From NCBI GenBank assembly GCA_964394405.1, contig CAYMVY010000002.1, forward strand, positions 64,092 to 128,091: DNA of 64,000 nt. Reading direction: 5' to 3'. This stretch comes from an uncultured Gammaproteobacteria bacterium (GTDB taxonomy: Bacteria > Patescibacteriota > Patescibacteriia > Magasanikbacterales > UBA922). Position numbers and translations under genes: made by a program. Of the stretch, positions 3,659 to 54,680 are shown one piece after another. The notes beneath the pieces are model-generated. The model did not search any database. It was not told the origin of the DNA and saw nothing but the letters and a program-made list of their open reading frames with translations. Position 1 is the first letter of the stretch; every line of letters begins with the position of its first letter.

Positions 3659-5062
3659 TTACAATCTGATGTGTAGTTTGTCGAGCAAGATGAGGATACT
3701 AAAAAAACCAAAGAAAAGAAAAATGATACCGAGTATGATTTTTCTCCAGAGCCTTGGCTGGAGAATTTTTGGCAGAGATCGGTGATTTAGCCACGACACC
3801 ATTCCCACATGGACAAACATGGCGAATGCATTGATAATCGCACCAAGAACTATCAATGTCTTTGGTTCGTAAACATTGAGGAGAAATAGAATAATACCAA
3901 ACGCAATTTGCGCCCAGACGAATATATAATAAATTTTCGACAGATTTATTTTTTTGTCTCCAGATTGTGATAATTTTTTGATTGCAACATTTTCTGCCAT
4001 GATTCTGCTGGTGGAGTCGACAATTCCCATCTGTGTCTGGAAGAGCATGATTGAGACAATCAGGAGGAATAGTGTTCCCACAATCGGCGAGAGTTTTTCT
4101 CCAATTACTTTTCCCTCGTTGATGACAAAGTGGATACCCTCGGCATTATTTTCAAGACCGAAGGTGGTTGTGAATGAAAGTAACATCAAGAGTAGCATGG
4201 AAACACCGCCGACAAACCAAAAAACAATCAAGTGTTCGTTATTGATCGCTTTCCACCACTGTCTGAATCGGGATATGTTTTTTTCTGTTAGTTCGAATTT
4301 TTCACCATCTAATTTTATTTGACGCATTTTTTTGCGCGCAGTGAATAATCCACTGATTTTGTCTGCATATTTTCCCATTCCATACCCCTTTTCTTTTACA
4401 TAGATTGATTGTGTGAGGTTGAGATTGCCACCGGCTCCTGAATAGGCGAATGCGGCGAAGAATGTTGCAAGTACTATGCCTTCGGGTAAAAATCGAAAAT
4501 CGATTCCTTTGCCCACGAGTCCCGAAGCGAGTGCTGACCAGTCTGCAGAGGTGCTCAGTATAATCGTGAGAATAAAAATAAATGGAACACCCGCGAGTAT
4601 AATCGTTTTGGTGACACGCTCCATCATGCTGTAGACGGTTTTTCCTGTACTCAAGATGATACCGATACCCACAAGCATTGCGATTGCAATCCATTTGAAT
4701 TCAGTAATTCCGAATAACGATGCAAAAACTTCGGCAGATGCCGCAATAATACCCGGGAGTCCAAATCCAATAAAGGTTGATATGATAAACCAGTAGGTTG
4801 ACCAGGAGAATATTTTTGCAAGTCCCACGAATACACTTTCACCTTTGACGAGCGCATAGCGCTCTATTTCCATGTTGATAAAAAATTGGAAGGTGATGCC
4901 GAGGAGGGCTCCCCATGCAATGCCTAGTCCGTAATTTGACGCAAGATAGGGCCAGAGTATTACTTCACCTGATCCGAGACCAAGAGCGAGGATAATAAAA
5001 CTCGGTCCAAGTAGTTTTCGCATTTTGAATGCAGTAGGAAATTCTTTATATTTTTCTGGCAT
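3659..5062 (-). CDS. NRAMP-like divalent metal transporter family membrane protein
   Basis: About 11 TM segments, N-terminal region resembling the MntH/NRAMP fold; family assignment by eye only. Confidence 0.5.
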   Translation of the reverse strand: MPEKYKEFPTAFKMRKLLGPSFIILALGLGSGEVILWPYLASNYGLGIAWGALLGITFQFFINMEIERYALVKGESVFVGLAKIFSWSTYWFIISTFIGFGLPGIIAASAEVFASLFGITEFKWIAIAMLVGIGIILSTGKTVYSMMERVTKTIILAGVPFIFILTIILSTSADWSALASGLVGKGIDFRFLPEGIVLATFFAAFAYSGAGGNLNLTQSIYVKEKGYGMGKYADKISGLFTARKKMRQIKLDGEKFELTEKNISRFRQWWKAINNEHLIVFWFVGGVSMLLLMLLSFTTTFGLENNAEGIHFVINEGKVIGEKLSPIVGTLFLLIVSIMLFQTQMGIVDSTSRIMAENVAIKKLSQSGDKKINLSKIYYIFVWAQIAFGIILFLLNVYEPKTLIVLGAIINAFAMFVHVGMVSWLNHRSLPKILQPRLWRKIILGIIFLFFGFFSILILLDKLHIRL

Positions 5063-5159
5063 AGTAGTGTATATTGTAGCATATCTCAGCAGTTTTATAA
5101 AAAATAAGCCTTTTCAGAAAGGTTTTTTTATATTCTTTTTGTCCTTGTGGATAAGTTTC

Positions 5160-5190
5160 TTGACTCTAACGTTACGTTATAGTTTAGTAT
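5160..5190 (+). promoter_or_regulatory. MerR-type promoter: TTGACT - 19-bp spacer containing dyad AACGTtACGTT - TAGTAT
   Basis: -35 5160-5165, -10 5185-5190, 19-bp spacer with perfect dyad, directly upstream of the MerR-family gene at 5212. Confidence 0.5.
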
Positions 5191-5211
5191 AGGTATTATA
5201 GGATCCTATCT

Positions 5212-5970
5212 ATGTCGTATACCGTTCATAGCCTCGCACAATTGGCAGGAATTAGTGTTCGCACCCTCCATTACTATGATGAAATTGGTCTCTTGAAGCC
5301 CTCGGTCATCAAAAAGAATGGATATCGTTATTACGAGGATGCCGAACTTATTCGTTTGCAACAGATACTCTTTTTCCGCGAATTAGAGTTTCCACTGGAA
5401 GACATCAAGCGCATGCTTAATCGTCCTCAGTTTAGCGTAGTCGAAGCGCTGAAAGATCAGAAAAAATTAATACGATTGAAGCAGGCAAGACTTGAAAAAT
5501 TAATTAATTCAATTAATAAAACTATTAAAACTATGAGTAATAATCAGAAAATTAAGGATGAAGAGTTGTATGATGTGTTCAAAGACACTGAGGTAAAACA
5601 GTATCAGGATGAAGTAAAGGAGCGGTGGGGGAATAGCGACGCCTATCGTCAGAGCATGGCGAAAGTGGGTAAGATGACAAAAAAAGAAATGGAAAAACTA
5701 AAAGAAGACGGAAAAAAACATACGCAGGCAATTGCTGATGCAATGGATAAGGGAATTGGTCACCCTGATGTACAGAAGCTTATTAAGCAAAGTCATGAAG
5801 GGGTGAATTTCTTTTATGACTGCAGCTATGACATGTTTCGCAATCTGGGGAAGATGTATGTGGAGGATTCGCGATTCACTGCGTACTATGAAAAGTTCCG
5901 TCCGGGTCTTGCAGTATTCATGCGCGACGCTATTGCGTATTATTGCGACCAGCATGAGAATAAATCATAA
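5212..5970 (+). CDS. MerR-family transcriptional regulator with TipAS-like C-terminal domain (TipAL/Mta-like)
   Basis: N-terminal MerR HTH (LAGISVRTLHYYDEIGLL) plus about 140-aa TipAS-like effector domain. Confidence 0.8.
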   Translation: MSYTVHSLAQLAGISVRTLHYYDEIGLLKPSVIKKNGYRYYEDAELIRLQQILFFRELEFPLEDIKRMLNRPQFSVVEALKDQKKLIRLKQARLEKLINSINKTIKTMSNNQKIKDEELYDVFKDTEVKQYQDEVKERWGNSDAYRQSMAKVGKMTKKEMEKLKEDGKKHTQAIADAMDKGIGHPDVQKLIKQSHEGVNFFYDCSYDMFRNLGKMYVEDSRFTAYYEKFRPGLAVFMRDAIAYYCDQHENKS

Positions 5971-8743: not shown

Positions 8744-10372
8744 TTAAATCACACTCCCGCCAAGCGCAGCTGCAAGGTCAGAGAGATCGGCGGCTGCGTT
8801 TTTTTGTTGCATATTTTCATTCACCTTTACTTCGAGCGCAAGTCGAAAACCGAGGATGGTTGCTAAGCCATCTTCAATTTTTTTCTTATTTGATATCTGT
8901 ATAATTTTGTCATGGTGAAAACTATACCCAACAGACAGTGAAAGTATCCCATTTTTTGCTGACGTTAGCTCAGCATTTTTGAGAATAAAAATCAGTGAAG
9001 GTGTTGTTTTTTCAATTTCAGCAATGAGTGAGTTCCATGCTTTTTTTACTTGCGCCATGTCTATGTTTTCTGGGGCATCTGTAGTTGGGGTAGGGTCTAG
9101 TTGTATTTCCGGTGTTGGAGCGGGAATCACTGGCTTGTGATTTGAGATTGAAGATTGAATATTGGGTTTTTGATCTGTTGCTTCTGGAGGTGTAGGTGAA
9201 CTTTGGGTTTTGGGCTTTGAGCTCGAAATATCTGAAGAAGTAACCTGTTTTTGATTTGAAAGAGGACTTTGCGAAGAAGCTTCGTCTCTAGATGACCATT
9301 CTACGACTAAGAGTTCGAGTGGTAGGTAGGGAAGTGGAGAAGATTTTATTTCTCCCATACGAGCAATTGCACAGTCGGTAAGTTCAACAATTTCTCGTCG
9401 CGTGATTTTTTTTGTAAGGTCGATGAGATTGTTGAAATCTGCATCAGGGAGGTAGGCTTCGTGGCGCGCAAGTTTGGGATCAATTGAAGTGATCAGTAGG
9501 ATACGGATAAGTTGTACAATTTCTTCCATGAAAATATGAGGGTATGTTCCTTGCTCGCTTAGTCTATGTATGTCATCTAGTCCGGCTGTAGCATTTTTTT
9601 CTACCAGATGAGTGAGGAACGTTAGTTGTGTTTCGTTTGAAGTGGCGGGCATTACAAATGACGCGCTTTCAAGCGTAATCTTTTTTTGCCCCAGGGCGAT
9701 TATCTGATCCAGGAGACTCACTGCGTCTCTAGCTCCACCCCGAGCTTTTCGTACGATTGCAGCGAGCACGTCGTCGTGCACCTCGATTCCTTCTTCTGTC
9801 GCAATTTTTGAGAGATGCGTCTTCATGGTGTCGTCAGGCACTCGAGAAAAGGCGAATCTCTGACAGCGAGAGATGACTGTTGCGGGCAATTTTTGCGCAT
9901 CAGTTGTCGCGAGTATAAAGACCACGTGCTCGGGCGGTTCTTCTAGTGTTTTCAAGAGGGCGTTGAAGGCGGCTGTGGACAACATGTGTACCTCGTCCAC
10001 GATGAAAATTTTGTATTTTCCCCTCGTTGGTTTGAACTGTGCATTATCAATAATATTTTCTCGCACATTGTCAACGCCGGTCTGACTCGCAGCGTCAATT
10101 TCTATGACATCAATTGATCGAGAAGCTGATATATCTTTGCACGAATCGCATGTGTCACAGGGATTTGGTTCATCTGACTTTCGATTCGTACAATTCAAAG
10201 ATTTCGCTAAAATACGGGCAGTTGTGGTCTTTCCAACCCCATGTGGGCCAGAGAATAGATATGCGTGCGCTACTTTGTTACCTGTAATTTCGTTCTTGAG
10301 CGTGGTGATAATGTGCTCCTGGTGAATGACTGTTTCAAACGTCTGTGGACGGTGTTTGTGATAGAGAGCCAT
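8744..10372 (-). CDS. dnaX: DNA polymerase III subunit gamma/tau
   Basis: Walker A GPHGVGKTT, zinc module CxxC-CDxC, clamp-loader boxes, Pro/Ser-rich linker. Confidence 0.9.
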   Translation of the reverse strand: MALYHKHRPQTFETVIHQEHIITTLKNEITGNKVAHAYLFSGPHGVGKTTTARILAKSLNCTNRKSDEPNPCDTCDSCKDISASRSIDVIEIDAASQTGVDNVRENIIDNAQFKPTRGKYKIFIVDEVHMLSTAAFNALLKTLEEPPEHVVFILATTDAQKLPATVISRCQRFAFSRVPDDTMKTHLSKIATEEGIEVHDDVLAAIVRKARGGARDAVSLLDQIIALGQKKITLESASFVMPATSNETQLTFLTHLVEKNATAGLDDIHRLSEQGTYPHIFMEEIVQLIRILLITSIDPKLARHEAYLPDADFNNLIDLTKKITRREIVELTDCAIARMGEIKSSPLPYLPLELLVVEWSSRDEASSQSPLSNQKQVTSSDISSSKPKTQSSPTPPEATDQKPNIQSSISNHKPVIPAPTPEIQLDPTPTTDAPENIDMAQVKKAWNSLIAEIEKTTPSLIFILKNAELTSAKNGILSLSVGYSFHHDKIIQISNKKKIEDGLATILGFRLALEVKVNENMQQKNAAADLSDLAAALGGSVI

Positions 10373-47868: not shown

Positions 47869-49119
47869 ATGACTAAACGCTTGTCTTTTATTATTGTTAT
47901 CTCTGCTATCTTGGTAACTGGATTATTCAACATCCGGGCTTTTTTTGTTGCTGTACCGGTAATTGCTGCGACTGAGGACGAAATTGCTGAGTTAAACAAA
48001 AAAATTGCTGAGGGAAAAAGCAAAATTGAACAATTGCAAAAAAGCATTGATGATTACAATAAAAAGATTTCTGAAAAGCGTACCGAAGCGCAATCACTCA
48101 CCAATCAGATTGCAATTATTGATAATCAATTGAAACAGATCCAGCTTGATATTGATCTGACCCAGGCAAAATTGGACACACTCGCCTTGGAAATTCAGGA
48201 ACTCGGTATTGGTATTTCTGGTAAGCAGGAAACTATTGATAAGCAACAAAAAATGCTTGCTGAGCTTATCCGTACCCTGAATTATGAAAATAATAAGAAA
48301 TATATTGAAGTTTTGGCAGCATATGATAATTTTTCTGACTTCTATAGCCGTGTACAGTATCTCAAAAGTATTGAACAAGACCTGGGACAGAGCGCAAAAG
48401 CGATTCGTATTGCAAAAGAAGAATTAGAGCAAAAAAAATCTGAGACTGAGGAAAGAAAGAAAACTTATGAAGGTCTAAAAGAACGATTGGAAAACAAGAA
48501 GCGTGATCTCGATGAACAATCAAAATACAAAGTAACACTGCTTGCAGAGACGCATTCTTCTGAAATGACCTATAAAACACTTGTTTCCAATCTCAAGGCA
48601 CAGTACAAACAAGTAGAAAATGAAATCGTGTCAGTCGAACAGCAAGTGCGGAAAAAATTGGCAGCAAATCAGAAGTTTAATAATTTAGTCGATGATCAGA
48701 CACTCCTCTCGTGGCCAACCGGAAGCAGATATATCACCGCCTATTTTCATGATCGGAGCTACCCATATCGATATATTTATGAGCATCCGGCAATTGATAT
48801 TCGTGGCGCCCATGGAACTGCTGTTGCGGCTGCAAAATCAGGCTATGTCGCCCGTGCGCGCACCTGTACGACTGCTAGTTGCTACGCCTATGTAATGATT
48901 GCGCATGAAGGCGGTGTGAGTACTGTCTACGGGCATTTGAGCAAGATTAGTGTAAAAGAAGACCAATTTGTGACCAGAGGAGACATTATTGGCTATTCTG
49001 GCGCTACACCGGGCACTGTAGGTGCAGGACCATTCACCACTGGCCCTCATCTACATTTTGAAGTTCGAAAAAATGGTATTCCGCAAGATCCACTTAATTA
49101 TTTGGTGAAAGATTGGTAA
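47869..49119 (+). CDS. M23 peptidase with N-terminal signal/TM and long coiled-coil (EnvC-like)
   Basis: Coiled-coil then M23 domain with GPHLHFEV. Confidence 0.8.
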   Translation: MTKRLSFIIVISAILVTGLFNIRAFFVAVPVIAATEDEIAELNKKIAEGKSKIEQLQKSIDDYNKKISEKRTEAQSLTNQIAIIDNQLKQIQLDIDLTQAKLDTLALEIQELGIGISGKQETIDKQQKMLAELIRTLNYENNKKYIEVLAAYDNFSDFYSRVQYLKSIEQDLGQSAKAIRIAKEELEQKKSETEERKKTYEGLKERLENKKRDLDEQSKYKVTLLAETHSSEMTYKTLVSNLKAQYKQVENEIVSVEQQVRKKLAANQKFNNLVDDQTLLSWPTGSRYITAYFHDRSYPYRYIYEHPAIDIRGAHGTAVAAAKSGYVARARTCTTASCYAYVMIAHEGGVSTVYGHLSKISVKEDQFVTRGDIIGYSGATPGTVGAGPFTTGPHLHFEVRKNGIPQDPLNYLVKDW

Positions 49120-49181
49120 TACTAACCCCACCCGGGCTTCGCCCACCCTCCCCTAAAAGGGGAGGGAAATACATATACGCT

Positions 49182-49712
49182 ATGAAAAATACTCGACAAA
49201 TTATATTCTTCGATACTGAGTTCACGTTTCTTGATGCGCGGAAAGGTGAATTATTGTCTTTGGGATTAGTAAAAGATTCTGGTGAAGAATTATATCTTGA
49301 ATTTGAGCAACCACCGCATGAACAAATGGATCCCTGGGTTATTGAACATGTGCTTCCATCACTGTCTGGAAATGTGGTGTCAAAAGATGAAGCTCGTGCA
49401 CAAATTCGTGAATTTGTCGGGACTGACAAGCCATACCTCATGGCATATGTGAATCAATTTGATTCAGTCTACTGGTACGATCTTTTTTCTGATCCACAGA
49501 AACATCCTGCATTCTGGATTCCGATTGATTTTGCGTCAATACTTTTTGCGCATGGATTTGATCCTGAAAGTATGGGGCAACAAGAATTCTTTGATCGGAT
49601 TGGTGTGAATCGATCCAATTACAGCACACGTGGTCATAATGCACTTGAAGACGCCCAACTTCTAAAAGAAGTATATACTCGCTTCATGTCGTATATCGGA
49701 CGCGCAAAATAG
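49182..49712 (+). CDS. DEDDh-family 3'-5' exonuclease (oligoribonuclease/RNase T-like)
   Basis: FFDTEFT, ...D..., HNALEDA motifs; start set to ATG 49182 with GGAGGG upstream. Confidence 0.65.
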   Translation: MKNTRQIIFFDTEFTFLDARKGELLSLGLVKDSGEELYLEFEQPPHEQMDPWVIEHVLPSLSGNVVSKDEARAQIREFVGTDKPYLMAYVNQFDSVYWYDLFSDPQKHPAFWIPIDFASILFAHGFDPESMGQQEFFDRIGVNRSNYSTRGHNALEDAQLLKEVYTRFMSYIGRAK

Positions 49713-50494
49713 TCTTGCTTCACAAACCTGCAGAAAAAGTTGATACTCTATACCTCTAGTTTTTGAACGCCAATTCTGTGGTGTCGCACAATGTAGGGGA
49801 TAGCATAGTCGAAAGTCTATAAAGTCATAAAGTCGAAAGTAAGAAATACAATACGCGTGTTAGTTGAACTGGTGCTAGGGGAGGGAAGGAAAAATTATAT
49901 GTGTAAAATGTTGACTCAAATACAGGAATCAAAGTTAGTTGGATTCAAAAGAACCTTTTTGTTCTATAGTATATAGTGTCGTATAAGATATATTGTGCGA
50001 CACGTAGTACTAAAGCGCGACACCTCACTTTCTGCTCTACCCTGCCTAGAAATGAGCTAAAAATAATTGTCTACGCATCTAATGTCGCAGGACGATTTCA
50101 CTACCTGACCTCAAACATTCTTTTACGAGTAAAAAACTAGGCATTTAAAAACCGATCAATTCAATGGTCGGCTTTTTTAATGTTTGGTTTATGGTTGGGA
50201 GGTTTTTTGACTGAATTTGGGGTGTTATCTACTCCCCGACCCTTAAGCCTGTAAAAGGTCAGGAGAGGTCAAGAAGTTATGAGAGTGTTCCCTACTACTT
50301 TTGCGGTCAGGTAGTTTGCGGTATAATTGTACTTAAATATATTCCCTTTCAACGGGGAGCATGAGCAAAATTGTCCCCTGAAGATTGAGTTTAATTATTG
50401 ACTACTGGATAGTCGCCCCCACAGTTAATCAACTTGGTTAGCTGTTGTGGGCGTTACTATCAGTGACGTTCAATTTTATTCTTAATCTCCTTCT

Positions 50495-50605
50495 ATGGCC
50501 AAGACCAAGAAAGGCAAGAAGATCGTGGAGGTTCGCCGCCACTATCGTCATGTCGGAGACAAGCGAATTCTCGTGAGAGAATATCGCAAGTCTACACCTA
50601 ATTAA
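50495..50605 (+). CDS. possible 36-aa highly basic peptide (MAKTKKGKKIVEVRRHYRHVGDKRILVREYRKSTPN)
   Basis: Small ORF followed by terminator 50645-50675, flanked by about 25-bp inverted repeats; no Shine-Dalgarno; could be noncoding. Confidence 0.25.
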   Translation: MAKTKKGKKIVEVRRHYRHVGDKRILVREYRKSTPN

Positions 50606-50644
50606 TTTTAGGTGAGGGGCTCCATGCTCCCCTTTCAAGGGGAA

Positions 50645-50675
50645 TAAAAAACGAGTCTTAGGTGACTCGTTTTGG
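50645..50675. terminator. terminator aacgagtc-ttaggt-gactcgtt + T-run
   Basis: Seen directly. Confidence 0.55.
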
Positions 50676-50690
50676 TTATTATATAAATTT

Positions 50691-51395
50691 TTATTCTAAA
50701 TCGAAGTTTTTCTTTAGCTTATTCAGTTCTTCAGAATCAGTAAGTCTCTTTACTTCCCTGCTCTTTTCAAGTTTTTTTATCTCGTCTAGAAGTGATTGAA
50801 AATCTTTTTCCCACTTACCTTGCTTATATGCGTGAACTGAGGTAGGGTTCAAGTACGTCGCCCATTCATCATCTGTTCGAGAGCAACCAACTTCGAATTT
50901 TTTATCTCCATTCTCAAGAACCTCGATATCTACATATTTGTCATCACTCGAATAACCTTGCCACTCTCTTGTCTGGATTGTATACAAAGAATCGTTAATA
51001 GTTAAAGTATAACCTTCTTTATCAGAGTCTTTTACTTTATCTATTTTCTCACTTAAAGAAACAACCATAGGCACAGATTCACGTCCCCGTTTAATCCAAC
51101 TTGGAAAATATTTTGTTTCGTCGTAAACTTTAACCACCAAGTCGTCTAGTCCTTTGTTCTTTGCTTCTTTTGATTTTTTCTCAGCTAAATCTCTAATTCT
51201 TTTGGCTTCTTTTACTGCTGTATCTTCTATTTCATTTTTATGGTTTGGTTGTATTTTTTCTGAAGTTTTTTTCTCAGCTTTTTCTTTTCTATTTAGATAT
51301 ATATAACAAGTGACAGTTAAAAAAACACAGCCTACCCAAAAGCTTTTAAAGATAAGAGCTACTATTATTGAAATAAAAACGAGAAGCCAAATCAT
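50691..51395 (-). CDS. hypothetical membrane protein: 2 N-terminal TM helices, Lys/Glu-rich linker, about 150-aa C-terminal domain of unknown family
   Basis: 8 bp downstream of the TIR-like gene on the same strand. Confidence 0.6.
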   Translation of the reverse strand: MIWLLVFISIIVALIFKSFWVGCVFLTVTCYIYLNRKEKAEKKTSEKIQPNHKNEIEDTAVKEAKRIRDLAEKKSKEAKNKGLDDLVVKVYDETKYFPSWIKRGRESVPMVVSLSEKIDKVKDSDKEGYTLTINDSLYTIQTREWQGYSSDDKYVDIEVLENGDKKFEVGCSRTDDEWATYLNPTSVHAYKQGKWEKDFQSLLDEIKKLEKSREVKRLTDSEELNKLKKNFDLE

Positions 51396-51403
51396 AATAA
51401 TAT

Positions 51404-52087
51404 TTAGAGATCCTTTACTTCAATATCGTATCCTTTGTCTGTCATTTCTTGTGCCAATTGTAGACGGGACTCTTTTACGTCTTCTTTGAATGGAATGTAT
51501 ATAAGTCCTTGGATGTCAGATGGACGCTCCATGTCAGCCTGATGCTTTAGCAAAATAGCAACCTTGTCTCTTCCTAATTTTGCCAGCATCATTCCAAGTT
51601 CGAGAACCACATTTTGTCTTGCTCTAAATGTTTTTGCTTCCTCATTATCTTTTTTATATCCTATGTCATCAGGTGTTGCAAGTACAATACAAAAATCAAC
51701 TTTGGAAGTATATTTTTCCAATTTTTCAATTATGGTTTTTCCACCAGAGGGTAGTTGGTCTAGGATCAAAGGGTTTAGACCCCATTTTCTGAGCATGGCT
51801 TCTAGTTGAGTTTTTGCGTCGTCGTCGTGTCCATATACAACAAAAACATCTTTCTTTGGTTCCTTCATAGGAGTAACTTGTAATACTCCCCCTGTTTTAT
51901 CGGGGAGCCCAAGTAATTGCTTTAAAGGTTCTGGGTTTTTGCCCTGAACACTTATTCGACCTGTTTTATATACGTTTACGATTGTGCCGTCCGCAATGGT
52001 TAGTTTTATTCCGTGGGGTATCTCTTTTTCAGCAGTTACGGTAAATCCCTTGTTTTGAAGCAATTCCTTGAGTTGATTTATATCCAT
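51404..52087 (-). CDS. TIR-like domain protein (DUF2263/COG4271, Pfam CAP12-PCTIR_TIR-type) with about 75-aa N-terminal domain of unknown function
   Basis: VFVVYGHDDDA...CIVLATPDDIGY...RARQNVVLELGMMLAKLGRDKVAILL...PSDIQGLIYIP matches the family signature from memory; promoter TTGAAA-N17-TATGAT at 52111-52139 (minus). Confidence 0.65.
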   Translation of the reverse strand: MDINQLKELLQNKGFTVTAEKEIPHGIKLTIADGTIVNVYKTGRISVQGKNPEPLKQLLGLPDKTGGVLQVTPMKEPKKDVFVVYGHDDDAKTQLEAMLRKWGLNPLILDQLPSGGKTIIEKLEKYTSKVDFCIVLATPDDIGYKKDNEEAKTFRARQNVVLELGMMLAKLGRDKVAILLKHQADMERPSDIQGLIYIPFKEDVKESRLQLAQEMTDKGYDIEVKDL

Positions 52088-52199
52088 ATTTTTGAGGTTT
52101 ATTTATCTCAATCATAGGTTATTTCGGTATTTTTTTCAACTCCCCCATTCATGGCACCTTCTGGGCATCTACAGTCTGGGTGGTTTTCTACCAAAACCC

Positions 52200-52228
52200 T
52201 TGACAATCCCCCTTTTTTGCGATAGTAT
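52200..52228 (+). promoter_or_regulatory. consensus promoter TTGACA-N17-TAGTAT followed by about 110-nt GC-rich structured leader
   Basis: Read directly. Confidence 0.45.
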
Positions 52229-52345
52229 GCCCAGCCGCTCTTTGAGAAATCCCTGCCTGTATGGGTAGGTCGGTCTCGGTAACGGGACTAAGAGGGTAAT
52301 TGCTCCTACCCTGCCCAAAGGAGTATCTAGGAAAGGATAAGGTCA

Positions 52346-52672
52346 ATGTCGCTGCAGCACATGAAGATCCTCCAGGGTCCCTGCAAGTTCCGCCTCATGG
52401 AGTCCCTGTTCCACGTCGCGGATGATCCGATCGATTACCCCCGGGAAGCGGTGACGTTCCTCGTGGAGTACAGAGGGGAGAAGTGCCGTATCTCGATCCC
52501 CTCGGTCGAGAGCATCGGACGTGTCTTCGGTGAGTACGAGACTTACCGAGTCAAGGGATATGGCAAGATGGTCCCGAACGCTGACCGTGCCAACTCCCTG
52601 TTCGAGCACCTGCCGGTCGAGCTCGTCTACTCGGTCCGGGACCGAAACGGGGTCGCTCAGGCCTCTTTCTGA
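52346..52672 (+). CDS. hypothetical 108-aa protein in GC-rich island
   Basis: ORF fills GC island; terminator hairpin ggccccga...tcggggcc at 52689-52723; no homology recognised. Confidence 0.4.
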   Translation: MSLQHMKILQGPCKFRLMESLFHVADDPIDYPREAVTFLVEYRGEKCRISIPSVESIGRVFGEYETYRVKGYGKMVPNADRANSLFEHLPVELVYSVRDRNGVAQASF

Positions 52673-52921
52673 CCCCTAGTGTGCCGTGGCCCCGATTCTT
52701 GTATGAGAGTCGGGGCCGTTCTAATGTAAACTATATTTTCAAATAAAAAAGCCGTAGTTGTATAGACTATGACTTTTTTATTTTTTTGATGTTATTTACT
52801 CTTTTTTAATTCCAGCATCCGTCTGAATCCTCGCAGAAAAAATGATGATCGACTCTTCCCTATCTTTGCCTGATAAAAGTCGCTCCTGCAATTTTGTAAT
52901 GTTTTATACATATAGTTTTGT

Positions 52922-53194
52922 TTAAGATTGAGTGAGCCAATTGACTGTTTTTTCTGCTAGATTTGATGATGTCCAATTTCTGGTTACTTCAGTCACGTAG
53001 ATTTTATCGTTTTTATTGGTGACGCTTTTCAGCTGTCTAATAATATCGAGTGAAGTGAGGTCTGTTTTTATAAGCCAGAATGATCCCATTGGTCTGGTCC
53101 AGAAATTGGCAGTTTTGATCATCTGGATTAATTTGGCATATTCAGGACTAGACTCTGGTTCTGCCAAGTCGTATGAAATGAGGTAGGTCTTCAT
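52922..53194 (-). CDS. hypothetical 90-aa protein translationally coupled to lexA (start overlaps lexA stop)
   Basis: MKTYLISYDL... ferredoxin-like-fold look; family not assigned. Confidence 0.5.
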   Translation of the reverse strand: MKTYLISYDLAEPESSPEYAKLIQMIKTANFWTRPMGSFWLIKTDLTSLDIIRQLKSVTNKNDKIYVTEVTRNWTSSNLAEKTVNWLTQS

Positions 53195-53197
53195 AGT

Positions 53198-53785
53198 CTA
53201 GATGTATTGTCGTACTACTCCAGTCACCACTCCCCCGACCTTCAGTTCGTATTTTGGAAATATGTCTGGATATTTTTTGTTTGCTGCCCGGAGAAACATT
53301 TTTTTGCCCCGCTGCATCAAGTATTTGAGTGTCCATTCGTGATCGACTTCTGCAACCACGACTGCTCCTGGTTTTGCAGGTTTCTTTCTATTCACGATTA
53401 CCATGTCCCCTGACATGATACCTGCGCCTTGCATCGAATCACCAGAAACTTTGAGTAGAAATGTGTGTGTGGGTTCGTGAATCAGTAGATCATTCAGTGA
53501 AATACAGTCGAGCAGGCTTTCTTCTGCGTCATGCGGGATGCCTGCGCGGACTTCTCCCAGCACCCGGACTCCGTAGAGTTTTGGGGTTGCAATGAGAAAT
53601 CCTTCATCGCTTTTACGCACTACATCATCTTCGATAAATTTTTCAATATAGTCATGTACGGTTGATTTTGATTTTACTCCGAAGACTTTGGTAAGTTCTT
53701 CGTATGTCGGGAGGCGCTTGTTCCGGTTGTAGTATGCTACGAGCGCTTCCATTCTTTTTTTGTAGAGATCTATAGGCATATACAA
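53198..53785 (-). CDS. lexA: LexA repressor (S24 peptidase, HTH N-terminal domain)
   Basis: Ser-Lys dyad (GDSM...K), cleavage-site region and winged HTH. Confidence 0.85.
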   Translation of the reverse strand: MYMPIDLYKKRMEALVAYYNRNKRLPTYEELTKVFGVKSKSTVHDYIEKFIEDDVVRKSDEGFLIATPKLYGVRVLGEVRAGIPHDAEESLLDCISLNDLLIHEPTHTFLLKVSGDSMQGAGIMSGDMVIVNRKKPAKPGAVVVAEVDHEWTLKYLMQRGKKMFLRAANKKYPDIFPKYELKVGGVVTGVVRQYI

Positions 53786-53902: not shown

Positions 53903-54149
53903 GCGTCAAAGCTTTTTGTAGGCACATATGTGGATAACTTAATGTCATTCCCGCGAAAGCAGGAATCCAGAATAAAAATACAATATTGAGTACACTCTCT
54001 GTACTTTTTGTAACCAAAAAGTACCACAAAAAGTTTCGGGGGTGACAAAACTCGCCTCACTAAGTTTGGTTAGTGATTTTACGCTCTTAGCTCAAACAGT
54101 TGTCACCCCCGAACCCCCTTTGTTCGCTTTATATATATTGGGCGTTTAA

Positions 54150-54176
54150 TAACAAAACCGCCCTTATCGGGCGGTA
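54150..54176 (-). terminator. terminator accgccc-ttatc-gggcggt with T-run on minus strand
   Basis: Seen directly. Confidence 0.5.
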
Positions 54177-54316
54177 GTCTATTCTATCATTCACTATACA
54201 CGAATTTCATGCGCAGTGAATGGTTCGCGATCGAGTGTGTTTTGCCTTACACAGTCGATCGCGAGTGGTGATTCCTCCTCAAAGAGGGTGAATCACTTTC
54301 CCGAAGAGGGGTGGGG

Positions 54317-54519
54317 TCAGATGTTCTCGTGATCCTCGGGCGGCGCGTCGGTCACGACGTTCTCCGGATCGTGAGGCGGAGACTTGGGCTGCGGCACTGG
54401 CTGCCAGAAGGCCTCCGGCTCCAGATCGTCCGGTCCGCAGGCCTTCTGCATCGGCGGCTTGTACTTGCCACCGGTGGGGTCGTAGCCACGCACCGTAGTG
54501 CTATCTTTCGAATTCGACA
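54317..54519 (-). CDS. hypothetical 67-aa Pro/Asp-rich protein in GC-rich island (GGAGAAG Shine-Dalgarno)
   Basis: ATG (minus) at 54517-54519; 15-bp inverted repeat hairpin at 54225-54264 and terminator at 54150-54176 downstream. Confidence 0.35.
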
Positions 54520-54680
54520 TCTTCTCTTCTCCAGTGCCCCCTGCTTGAGGTATAACGCGTGAGCGTCGAGTGTGAGGGCGAATCATATTCCAATTATTAC
54601 TTAGAATATTATTTACCCGCACACTCAAAAAAGAACTAGTCAACATTAGTGTATATCATGTTTTGTATGTTTTGTCAATC

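Follow-up and report, generated by a model that had tools for sequence, protein, structure and literature searches.

Two adjacent minus-strand genes in a 64,000-nucleotide stretch of contig CAYMVY010000002.1 (assembly GCA_964394405.1; the whole stretch is referred to below as the window) had been singled out in a first-pass annotation as a candidate defence pair that fits no described system. The upstream gene (51404-52087) encodes a protein of 227 amino acids with a C-terminal TIR-like domain (protein 1), while the downstream gene (50691-51395) encodes a protein of 234 amino acids with a hydrophobic N-terminus (protein 2). Judged by its sequence, protein 1 is a new copy of a widespread and already catalogued single-gene anti-phage candidate family, PDC-S35. 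The pair, on the other hand, is a local juxtaposition, and protein 2 is not a conserved partner of protein 1. The explanation that we favour, with a probability of roughly 0.6, is that protein 1 represents a self-contained, mobile single-gene anti-phage candidate and protein 2 an independent accessory gene, both having settled in a small hotspot of horizontal gene transfer that has an exonuclease gene on one side and a LexA-like operon on the other.

The placement of protein 1 comes from PADLOC, which the first-pass annotation had recommended for both proteins and which returns no model for protein 2. Model PDLC05006 (PDC-S35) aligns residues 1-226 of the 227 in protein 1 with profile positions 1-230 of 231 (E = 1.3e-98), and four more PDC-S35 models match at 5e-70 to 1e-52. 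Given this full-length match, the view that the locus fits no described system had to be abandoned for protein 1. What led to the proposal of the PDC families was the position of their genes inside BREX, DISARM or type I restriction-modification (R-M) systems, a rationale termed 'guilt-by-embedding'; PADLOC includes them so that they can be tested later (Payne et al., bioRxiv 10.1101/2024.01.29.577857). Literature searches (PDC-S35; TBP-like plus TIR plus NADase; COG4271) returned no experimental work on the architecture of protein 1 and no mention of PDC-S35.

A word-index search yielded 4,889 homologs of protein 1, spanning Bacteroidota, Gamma-, Beta- and Alphaproteobacteria, Firmicutes, Planctomycetota and other groups. 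Nearly all of the best 120 of these are 220-234 amino acids long and cover 95-100% of the query. The domain order, initially regarded as unusual, is thus nothing of the kind, the same architecture of about 227 residues being present in thousands of proteins across phyla. The family is distributed sporadically, with 55-66% identity between unrelated lineages, and has a counterpart among phage protein families (phrog_16442, 2e-54). Full-length homologs also occur on plasmids and in three Escherichia coli myophages, where they are encoded between DNA polymerase and nuclease/helicase genes. Protein 1 was probably acquired horizontally, in agreement with what had been proposed. In Escherichia phage vB_EcoM-689R2 (ON470582.1; locus L100), a full-length homolog of the TIR protein with 39% identity (4950-5711) lies inside the replication module, an unusual site for a defence-type gene.

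The C-terminal part of protein 1 (amino acids 80-227 plus the stop codon; 51404-51850, minus strand) is a TIR domain of the CAP12/Pycsar clade and a predicted NAD+ hydrolase (NADase). Pfam model PF10137 (CAP12-PCTIR_TIR) matches residues 81-201 over profile positions 2-118 of 119, with E = 9.2e-37 and 126.1 bits against a cut-off of 24.7. The TIR-like assignment is upheld by this search, and the motifs on which it had been founded are all present in the protein (VFVVYGHDDDA, CIVLATPDDIGY, RARQNVVLELGMMLAKLGRDKV and PSDIQGLIYIP). In the AlphaFold2 model, which has a mean predicted local distance difference test score (pLDDT) of 78, the C-terminal domain is flavodoxin-like. Its best Foldseek match in the PDB is the TIR domain of SfSTING (7un8, E = 1.4e-6), followed by those of other TIR-STING proteins and then by SPARTA TIR-APAZ proteins (8i87, 8qlo) and SARM1. 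The model places a beta-hairpin at residues 141-155, ahead of the motif RQNVVLELG that contains E163. All 109 family sequences have this glutamate, and the same holds for H87, P139-D140-D141, R155, R157, N159 and S190-D191; the copy in the window keeps every invariant residue.

TIR domains of the CAP12/Pycsar clade have been described as oligomerisation-activated NADases in which the C-C loop forms a distinctive hairpin and the catalytic glutamate is conserved (10.64898/2026.04.30.722052), features to which the hairpin and the invariant E163 of protein 1 conform. E163 is a candidate counterpart of the catalytic glutamate of SfSTING. A survey by the Sorek group considers TIR proteins from CBASS and Pycsar contexts, as well as standalone ones, to be probable NAD+-depleting effectors and not signal generators (10.64898/2025.12.03.692087). 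By analogy, the TIR domain of protein 1 most likely serves as an NAD+-consuming effector that would become active on oligomerisation. A comparable layout is known from Dictyostelium, whose TirB and TirD proteins join a small N-terminal 'partial KH-like' domain to a TIR domain of the CAP12/Pycsar clade, an arrangement attributed to domain shuffling within amoebae (10.64898/2026.04.30.722052). As this layout is the same as that of the bacterial family of protein 1, the whole architecture may have been transferred.

The N-terminal domain (amino acids 1-62; 51902-52087, minus strand), earlier described as uncharacterised, can probably be assigned to the TBP-like alpha-beta4-alpha type found at the N-terminus of RNase HIII and in RnlA. 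Structure prediction, which had been suggested for this region, gives a helix, four strands and a helix (H-E-E-E-E-H) over residues 3-59 at pLDDT 80-89. The RNase HIII equivalog TIGR00716 (rnhC) matches full-length protein 1 over residues 3-88 with E = 2e-4. A domain profile of 29 sequences (residues 1-64) searched against the PDB retrieved the N-terminal domains of the RNase HIII structures 3vn5 (E = 0.0028), 4py5 (0.0058) and 2d0a (1.8), along with LsoA (0.48). When the 29 members were scanned one by one against Pfam, 17 matched DUF3378 (best 2.8e-5), six RnlA_toxin and five TBP. The motif shared in the alignment reads YKTGRISVQGKN in the window protein and YKTGSLLIQGKN in 3vn5. We regard it as very probable that the fold is of this type. 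The domain is separated from the TIR domain by a low-confidence linker (amino acids 63-79; 51851-51901, minus strand), with pLDDT below 50 at residues 64-74 and gapped, variable alignment columns that reflect a varying length.

What such a domain might recognize is indicated by its structurally characterized relatives. In the RNase H3 of Thermovibrio, the exposed sheet of the N-terminal domain binds the RNA/DNA hybrid across the minor groove, the isolated domain binding hybrids only; deoxyriboses are contacted through stacking by Tyr43 and His28, and a 2'-OH by the amide of Gly52 (PMC4132731). Tyr43 corresponds to position 40 of protein 1, where all 109 sequences have an aromatic residue, and Gly52 to the invariant G49. 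The same TBP-like domain is fused to RNase LS/RnlA toxins, for which targeting of DNA-RNA duplexes has been inferred (Anantharaman et al., PMC3710099). By analogy with these proteins, the N-terminal domain may be a candidate sensor of RNA/DNA hybrids, a proposal that we advance tentatively, as possible rather than probable.

In a simplified view of how the favoured explanation would operate, the N-terminal domain would act as the sensor and bind a nucleic acid that accompanies infection, the most plausible being an RNA/DNA hybrid generated by phage replication or transcription. With several copies of protein 1 gathered on one ligand, the TIR domains would be brought together and could oligomerise. 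Oligomerisation would in turn switch on NAD+ hydrolysis, as in TIR-STING and SPARTA, and so abort the infection. The earlier idea of a sensor combined with an NADase is a sensible one.

The gene neighbourhoods of the protein 1 family were compiled from 80 genome loci (designated, like the other loci discussed here, by L and a number). In 12 of the 80, the TIR gene lies within a type I R-M system, preceded by hsdM and hsdS and followed by hsdR; of the 132 immediate neighbours, PADLOC models recognize 12 as specificity subunits and 12 as type I methyltransferases. Genes for ThsA-Macro/ThsB-TIR are found near the homolog in another context, that of Thoeris, in four to five of the loci. Embedding in type I R-M systems and adjacency to Thoeris amount to an independent repetition of the guilt-by-embedding logic from which the PDC families arose. 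No neighbour family is common to more than 12 of the 80 loci, these 12 being the R-M subunits, and the gene stands alone, without an obligate conserved partner. Its patchy spread, its high identity across phyla and its residence in defence operons and on mobile elements favour a defence role for the family, supporting such a role without proving it.

A second arrangement was observed in nine of the 80 loci, all proteobacterial, in which a gene for a 161-amino-acid DUF2321 protein (PF10083, zinc-ribbon) lies directly upstream of the TIR gene (L042, L059, L061, L062, L064, L067, L070, L075 and L078; for example, L062:5504-5989). The two genes seem to overlap, an appearance that may stem from longest open reading frame (ORF) start calls. 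This arrangement may constitute a two-gene variant of PDC-S35.

In the window, both ORFs lie on the minus strand as originally placed, with eight nucleotides between the stop codon of the TIR gene (51404-51406) and the ATG of the protein 2 gene (51395). A sigma-70-like promoter match, TTGAAA-N17-TATGAT, is located 5' of the TIR gene (52111-52139, minus strand; 10 of 12 matches) and is suggestive. The reported promoter sequence thus exists, but it carries little evidential weight because the number of promoter-like sites in the region, nine, is close to the 6.0 +/- 3.1 expected by chance. Directly after the stop codon of protein 2, a hairpin with a 10-pair stem and a T-run on the minus strand (50648-50673) reads as the likely terminator of a two-gene transcript. 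An internal promoter ahead of protein 2 was considered and rejected, the sole intergenic -10-like hexamer overlapping the protein 2 ATG. Because of the 8-nucleotide spacing, the shared strand, the lack of a usable internal promoter and the single downstream hairpin, the two genes are likely co-transcribed in the source genome. That two genes lie close together in a single genome is, of itself, not enough to call a system.

Comparative data do not bear out the pair. A hidden Markov model (HMM) of the protein 2 family, which scores every known homolog at 1e-53 to 1e-75, produced no match, even at E <= 1, among the 3,575 ORFs of at least 60 amino acids in the 80 TIR loci, and tblastn of protein 2 against all 80 returned noise only. 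In the reverse direction, a TIR gene was found in none of the nine other genomic contexts of protein 2, as judged by tblastn for L081-L094 and by precomputed Pfam lists for the later loci. Among L081-L094, tblastn with the TIR protein gave a match only in L088, which is a duplicate assembly of the window itself. Downstream same-strand transmembrane (TM) proteins of any kind are rare beside TIR homologs. One locus offers a direct comparison: L090 shares ClpB (61% identity), WecG, GluRS (49%) and the M23 peptidase with the window and its homolog of protein 2 (46% identity), located between WecG and GluRS, is unaccompanied by a TIR gene. The co-occurrence of the two genes, put forward by the first-pass annotation as one check on the pair, therefore fails to appear in any of the 80 TIR loci or the nine contexts of protein 2. 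Since protein 1 does match TIR models and the two genes do not form a conserved housekeeping duo, the idea of defence survives for protein 1, whereas the idea of a pair does not.

Protein 2 begins with a hydrophobic stretch (residues 2-34), continues with a linker rich in lysine and glutamate and ends in a domain of about 170 residues that has no counterpart in Pfam, NCBIfam or PHROG. The word-index search returned the protein itself only, which gave it the appearance of an orphan; exhaustive phmmer searching disposed of this notion by uncovering 124 representatives at E <= 1e-3 (30 at <= 1e-10), all of which share residues ~62-234. A profile-based word-index search found three proteins only, and a search for related loci with a 7-sequence alignment gave two metagenome loci and no viral ones. 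The family was not found in the phage, plasmid and viral-contig collections. Its conserved features comprise GLDxL...YPSWIK, an invariant tryptophan (W195) and a C-terminal F-G/D-I; it has no recurrent Pfam family among its members, no sequence relative in the PDB and no enzymatic motifs.

When supplied with the family alignment, AlphaFold2 produced a very confident model of protein 2 (pLDDT 92.7), as had been sought for the C-terminal domain of this TM protein. In the model, a hydrophobic N-terminal helix is followed by three further helices, an antiparallel sheet of six strands and a pair of C-terminal helices. The conserved domain occupies amino acids 62-234 (50694-51212, minus strand), and its fold is without a match, the model retrieving nothing from BFVD at E <= 1e-3. 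The hydrophobic N-terminus (amino acids 1-34; 51294-51395, minus strand) would form a membrane anchor of one or two segments, being modelled as one long helix (2-42) that possibly includes two short TM segments. The original description of protein 2 is correct in its hydrophobic N-terminus, charged linker and domain without assignment, but its two TM helices are no more than possible, with a single long helix in the model. Across 43 family members, the anchor consists of one N-terminal segment in 15, two N-terminal segments in seven and a C-terminal segment in eight, and is missing in 13. Protein 2 thus belongs to a small, divergent and uncharacterised family in which the membrane anchor is optional.

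The relatives of protein 2 were examined in ten distinct contexts, the window included, a small sample with no background statistic. Five of the ten (four of nine besides the window) have the protein 2 member directly abutting a recognized defence or toxin gene. These neighbours are the TIR gene of the window, at 8 nucleotides; a 1,101-amino-acid SF1 helicase plus REase_MTES_1575 protein that matches PDC-S37, MkoC and Hhe, at 12 nucleotides (L093); a C5-methylase/EcoRII-C type II R-M system, at 78 nucleotides and with AbiE genes nearby (L101); Shedu SduA with an Ltp-like lipoprotein (L091); and MazE-Fic (L081). Two contexts are mobile or phage-like, one with HNH, integrase and AAA_21 genes (L082) and one with Bro-N, PP2C and ADP-ribosylglycohydrolase genes (L095). 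L090 shows the housekeeping block ClpB-WecG-[homolog]-GluRS-M23, as in the window, and the homologs in L096 and L098 sit among hypothetical genes. The distribution suggests that the protein 2 family lives in variable, defence-rich DNA. Its sole recurrent partner is an unannotated protein of 360-390 amino acids encoded just upstream of the protein 2 homologs of two unrelated metagenome contigs (L082:6917-7996 and L096:2828-4000; mutual phmmer 1e-63), with no match in Pfam, PADLOC, PHROG or the PDB.

Several other accounts of the locus deserve consideration. The two genes could form a two-component defence system, with the TIR protein as an infection sensor that either depletes NAD+ or produces a signal and with the membrane protein as its effector, much as in Thoeris with TM effectors. 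Genes that lie 8 nucleotides apart on one strand, with one promoter-like site 5' and one hairpin 3', and that both have a lower guanine-plus-cytosine (GC) content than the window, would suit this proposal, and the pattern of a TIR gene in a two-gene operon with a TM or unknown-domain effector has been validated (10.64898/2025.12.03.692087). However, the pairing is unique to the window (0 of 80 TIR loci at HMM E <= 1; 0 of 9 other contexts), TM genes downstream of TIR homologs are scarce, 13 of 43 protein 2 relatives have no membrane anchor and a relative genome (L090) keeps the protein 2 homolog without the TIR gene. The TIR domain, moreover, falls in the CAP12/Pycsar effector clade and not in the ThsB signalling clade. 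A two-component system is, on these grounds, rather improbable. Almost as doubtful, though a little less so, is a broader version in which the protein 2 family represents a new modular immunity accessory or effector, with a previously unseen fold of ~170 residues and interchangeable anchoring, that has been recruited beside a TIR NADase, a helicase-nuclease, Shedu and a type II R-M system and that cooperates with the TIR protein here. A further proposal dispenses with cooperation and holds that the protein 2 family is itself an unrecognized single-gene defence or exclusion factor, which would make the locus a mini defence island of two independent systems. The contexts that abut defence or toxin genes (5 of 10), the two that are mobile or phage-like, the patchy spread and high divergence of the family and the atypically low GC of the gene all speak for it; set against them are the size of the sample (10 contexts, no statistical background), the homolog in the housekeeping block of L090, the lack of enzymatic motifs and of a fold match, and the absence of the family from phage, plasmid and viral-contig collections. 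We consider this a serious possibility that nevertheless falls well short of being probable.

Protein 1 could alternatively be a housekeeping or regulatory nucleotide-processing enzyme, a hydrolase resembling DNPH1 or nucleoside deoxyribosyltransferase that is directed to RNA/DNA hybrids by its N-terminal domain and works in replication or repair. DNPH1 is indeed among the Foldseek matches (1e-4), the database label of the family is 'nucleotide-binding protein', the genomic neighbours include a DEDDh exonuclease and a LexA-like protein, and the homolog of the E. coli phage sits in a replication module. Yet the best matches in both sequence and structure are immune TIR NADases, and a housekeeping role is difficult to reconcile with sporadic cross-phylum spread at 55-66% identity, with embedding in type I R-M systems and proximity to Thoeris, or with the absence of the TIR gene from the syntenic block of L090; we rate it as very improbable. 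Finally, the TIR protein might need a partner that is not adjacent, such as the DUF2321 zinc-ribbon protein whose gene is immediately upstream and apparently coupled in nine of the 80 loci, in which case the copy in the window would be incomplete or decaying. As about 70 other loci have no DUF2321 gene, the window protein retains all invariant residues and the overlap may be a product of start calls, this last account is the least likely of those considered.

The favoured explanation, of a self-contained single-gene candidate beside an independent accessory gene, has to accommodate several points that weigh against it. The searchable literature contains no experiment on a PDC-S35 member, and both the NADase activity and the hybrid binding ascribed to protein 1 are derived from homology. 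The matches of the N-terminal domain each fall below the Pfam gathering score, the window protein reaching E = 0.017 and 15.7 bits with PF11858 against a cut-off of 27. Conservation extends to some of the hybrid-contact positions only: at position 25, the equivalent of His28, no more than 52 of the 109 sequences have H or Y, and variation is also seen at the counterparts of Glu27, Ser45 and Ser47. The TIR gene of the window is not embedded in a defence system and has no other defence gene within ~10 kb, while the protein 2 family was seen in just 10 contexts. The 8-nucleotide spacing on a shared strand, with no usable internal promoter and one hairpin 3', also leaves room for a functional link that evolved locally.

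The pair is flanked on one side by genes for ClpB, WecG, a TrmH-like protein, GluRS, an M23 peptidase and a DEDDh exonuclease (49113-49712), and on the other by genes for a LexA-like S24 protein, FtsQ, FemAB and DegT. No other PADLOC defence protein is encoded within ~10 kb of the pair. The reported lack of a cyclase, SIR2, SLOG or Macro gene is borne out for the annotated genes within about 10 kb, the rest of the window not having been scanned exhaustively. The 3 kb between the exonuclease gene and the LexA-like operon are compositionally odd: the protein 2 gene is the lowest-GC 700-nucleotide stretch of the window (0.329 versus a mean of 0.414), and the TIR gene stands at the 14th percentile. 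The 'accessory-island context' claimed initially is hence half right, in that the neighbours are housekeeping genes with no further defence gene within ~10 kb, whereas the composition is that of a small hotspot of horizontal gene transfer. The site looks like such a hotspot and not like a classical defence island.

Several additional features were noted around the pair. A GC-rich patch at 52150-52750 (GC 0.54-0.57 versus a window average of 0.41) holds an ORF of 108 amino acids (52346-52672, plus strand) that is divergent from the TIR gene. With GC contents of 0.61, 0.38 and 0.82 at its first, second and third codon positions and strong coding periodicity, this ORF is typical of a high-GC donor. 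It is preceded by a promoter-like site (52200-52228, plus strand) and is also present in the second assembly of the same sequence (L088); neither ORF nor patch has a match in Pfam, PADLOC, PHROGs, the PDB, plasmids or Rfam. A second GC-rich patch (54100-54650, up to 0.61) lies between the LexA-like operon and FtsQ and contains several short perfect hairpins, such as 54225-54264 and 54035-54113, with no clear coding periodicity and no family match. A hit to the Rfam Thr_leader family in the flanks was rejected (E 0.012; 30 bits against a cut-off of 55), and nothing else credible emerged there.

Four nucleotides downstream of the LexA-like gene (53198-53785, minus strand), a protein of 90 amino acids (52922-53194, minus strand) matches the phage family phrog_1090 (E = 1.9e-20). 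Its match to a Cas2 model is marginal (E = 9e-4), and L090 encodes a 314-amino-acid protein with a related domain (8879-9823). The LexA-like S24 gene and this small phage-family gene may form a distinct module. Just downstream of protein 2, a 24-nucleotide inverted repeat (50340-50363 and 50623-50646; 88% complementary), each arm of which has its own CCCC...GGGG palindrome, brackets a highly basic ORF of 36 amino acids (50495-50605, plus strand), MAKTKKGKKIVEVRRHYRHVGDKRILVREYRKSTPN.

If the favoured explanation is true, the locus adds little on its own, being one more copy of a catalogued candidate. The broader implication is that PDC-S35 proteins may be minimal sensor-effector immune proteins of ~227 amino acids, a protein-only analogue of SPARTA-type sensing, and could then serve as a simple model of what triggers TIR oligomerisation. 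The protein 2 family, with its confident model, its lack of a fold match and its recurrence beside defence genes, is a candidate for inclusion among the still unassigned genes of defence islands.

The closest described entity is PDC-S35 itself, with which protein 1 shares the full-length match to PDLC05006, the single-gene organization and homologs in type I R-M operons. The copy in the window differs in being embedded in no defence system; PDC-S35, for its part, is a prediction whose N-terminal domain is unnamed in the searchable text. The first-pass annotation was right to set the locus apart from canonical CBASS, Pycsar and Thoeris. With respect to CBASS, there is no cyclase among the annotated neighbours, and the NCBIfam Cap12 equivalogs reach 43.4 and 40 bits against a cut-off of 450, over the TIR part only. 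With respect to Pycsar, the PycTIR model covers residues 108-213 alone (E = 8e-14), again with no cyclase nearby. The TIR domain of protein 1 belongs to PF10137 and not to PF08937 as would be expected of Thoeris ThsB, and the adjacent gene is conserved with TIR in 0 of 80 loci. Thoeris types II, VI and VII with TM effectors (Yirmiya et al. 2025) have a superficially identical layout, a TIR gene followed by that of a small membrane protein, but they differ in the type of TIR domain and in the conservation of the partner, and protein 2 is unlike their Macro-TM, DUF6650 and SLATT effectors (no PADLOC or Pfam match).

Structurally, protein 1 resembles TIR-STING (SfSTING, 7un8) and Cap12/PycTIR, to which it is linked by the PF10137 clade and the best structural match and with which it would share the C-C loop hairpin, the conserved glutamate and an NAD+ hydrolysis switched by oligomerisation. 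In place of a STING, SAVED or cyclic-nucleotide-binding domain, however, it has a probable TBP-like domain of ~60 amino acids. For that domain, the counterparts are the N-terminal domains of RNase HIII (DUF3378/PF11858; 3vn5, 4py5) and of RnlA/LsoA, which have the alpha-beta4-alpha layout predicted for protein 1 and share with it the motif Y-K-T/S-G-x-h-x-h-Q/G-G-K. Protein 1 differs from these in fusing the domain to TIR and not to an RNase H or HEPN nuclease, and RnlA, in which the same kind of domain is joined to an anti-phage toxin, is a precedent for fusion to a defence effector (PMC3710099). The likeness to SPARTA (short prokaryotic Argonaute plus TIR-APAZ), where recognition of an RNA/DNA duplex leads to oligomerisation of the TIR NADase and abortive infection, is for protein 1 a conceptual one. 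Protein 1 has no Argonaute, APAZ or guide, and its recognition would instead be non-sequence-specific, entrusted to one small domain.

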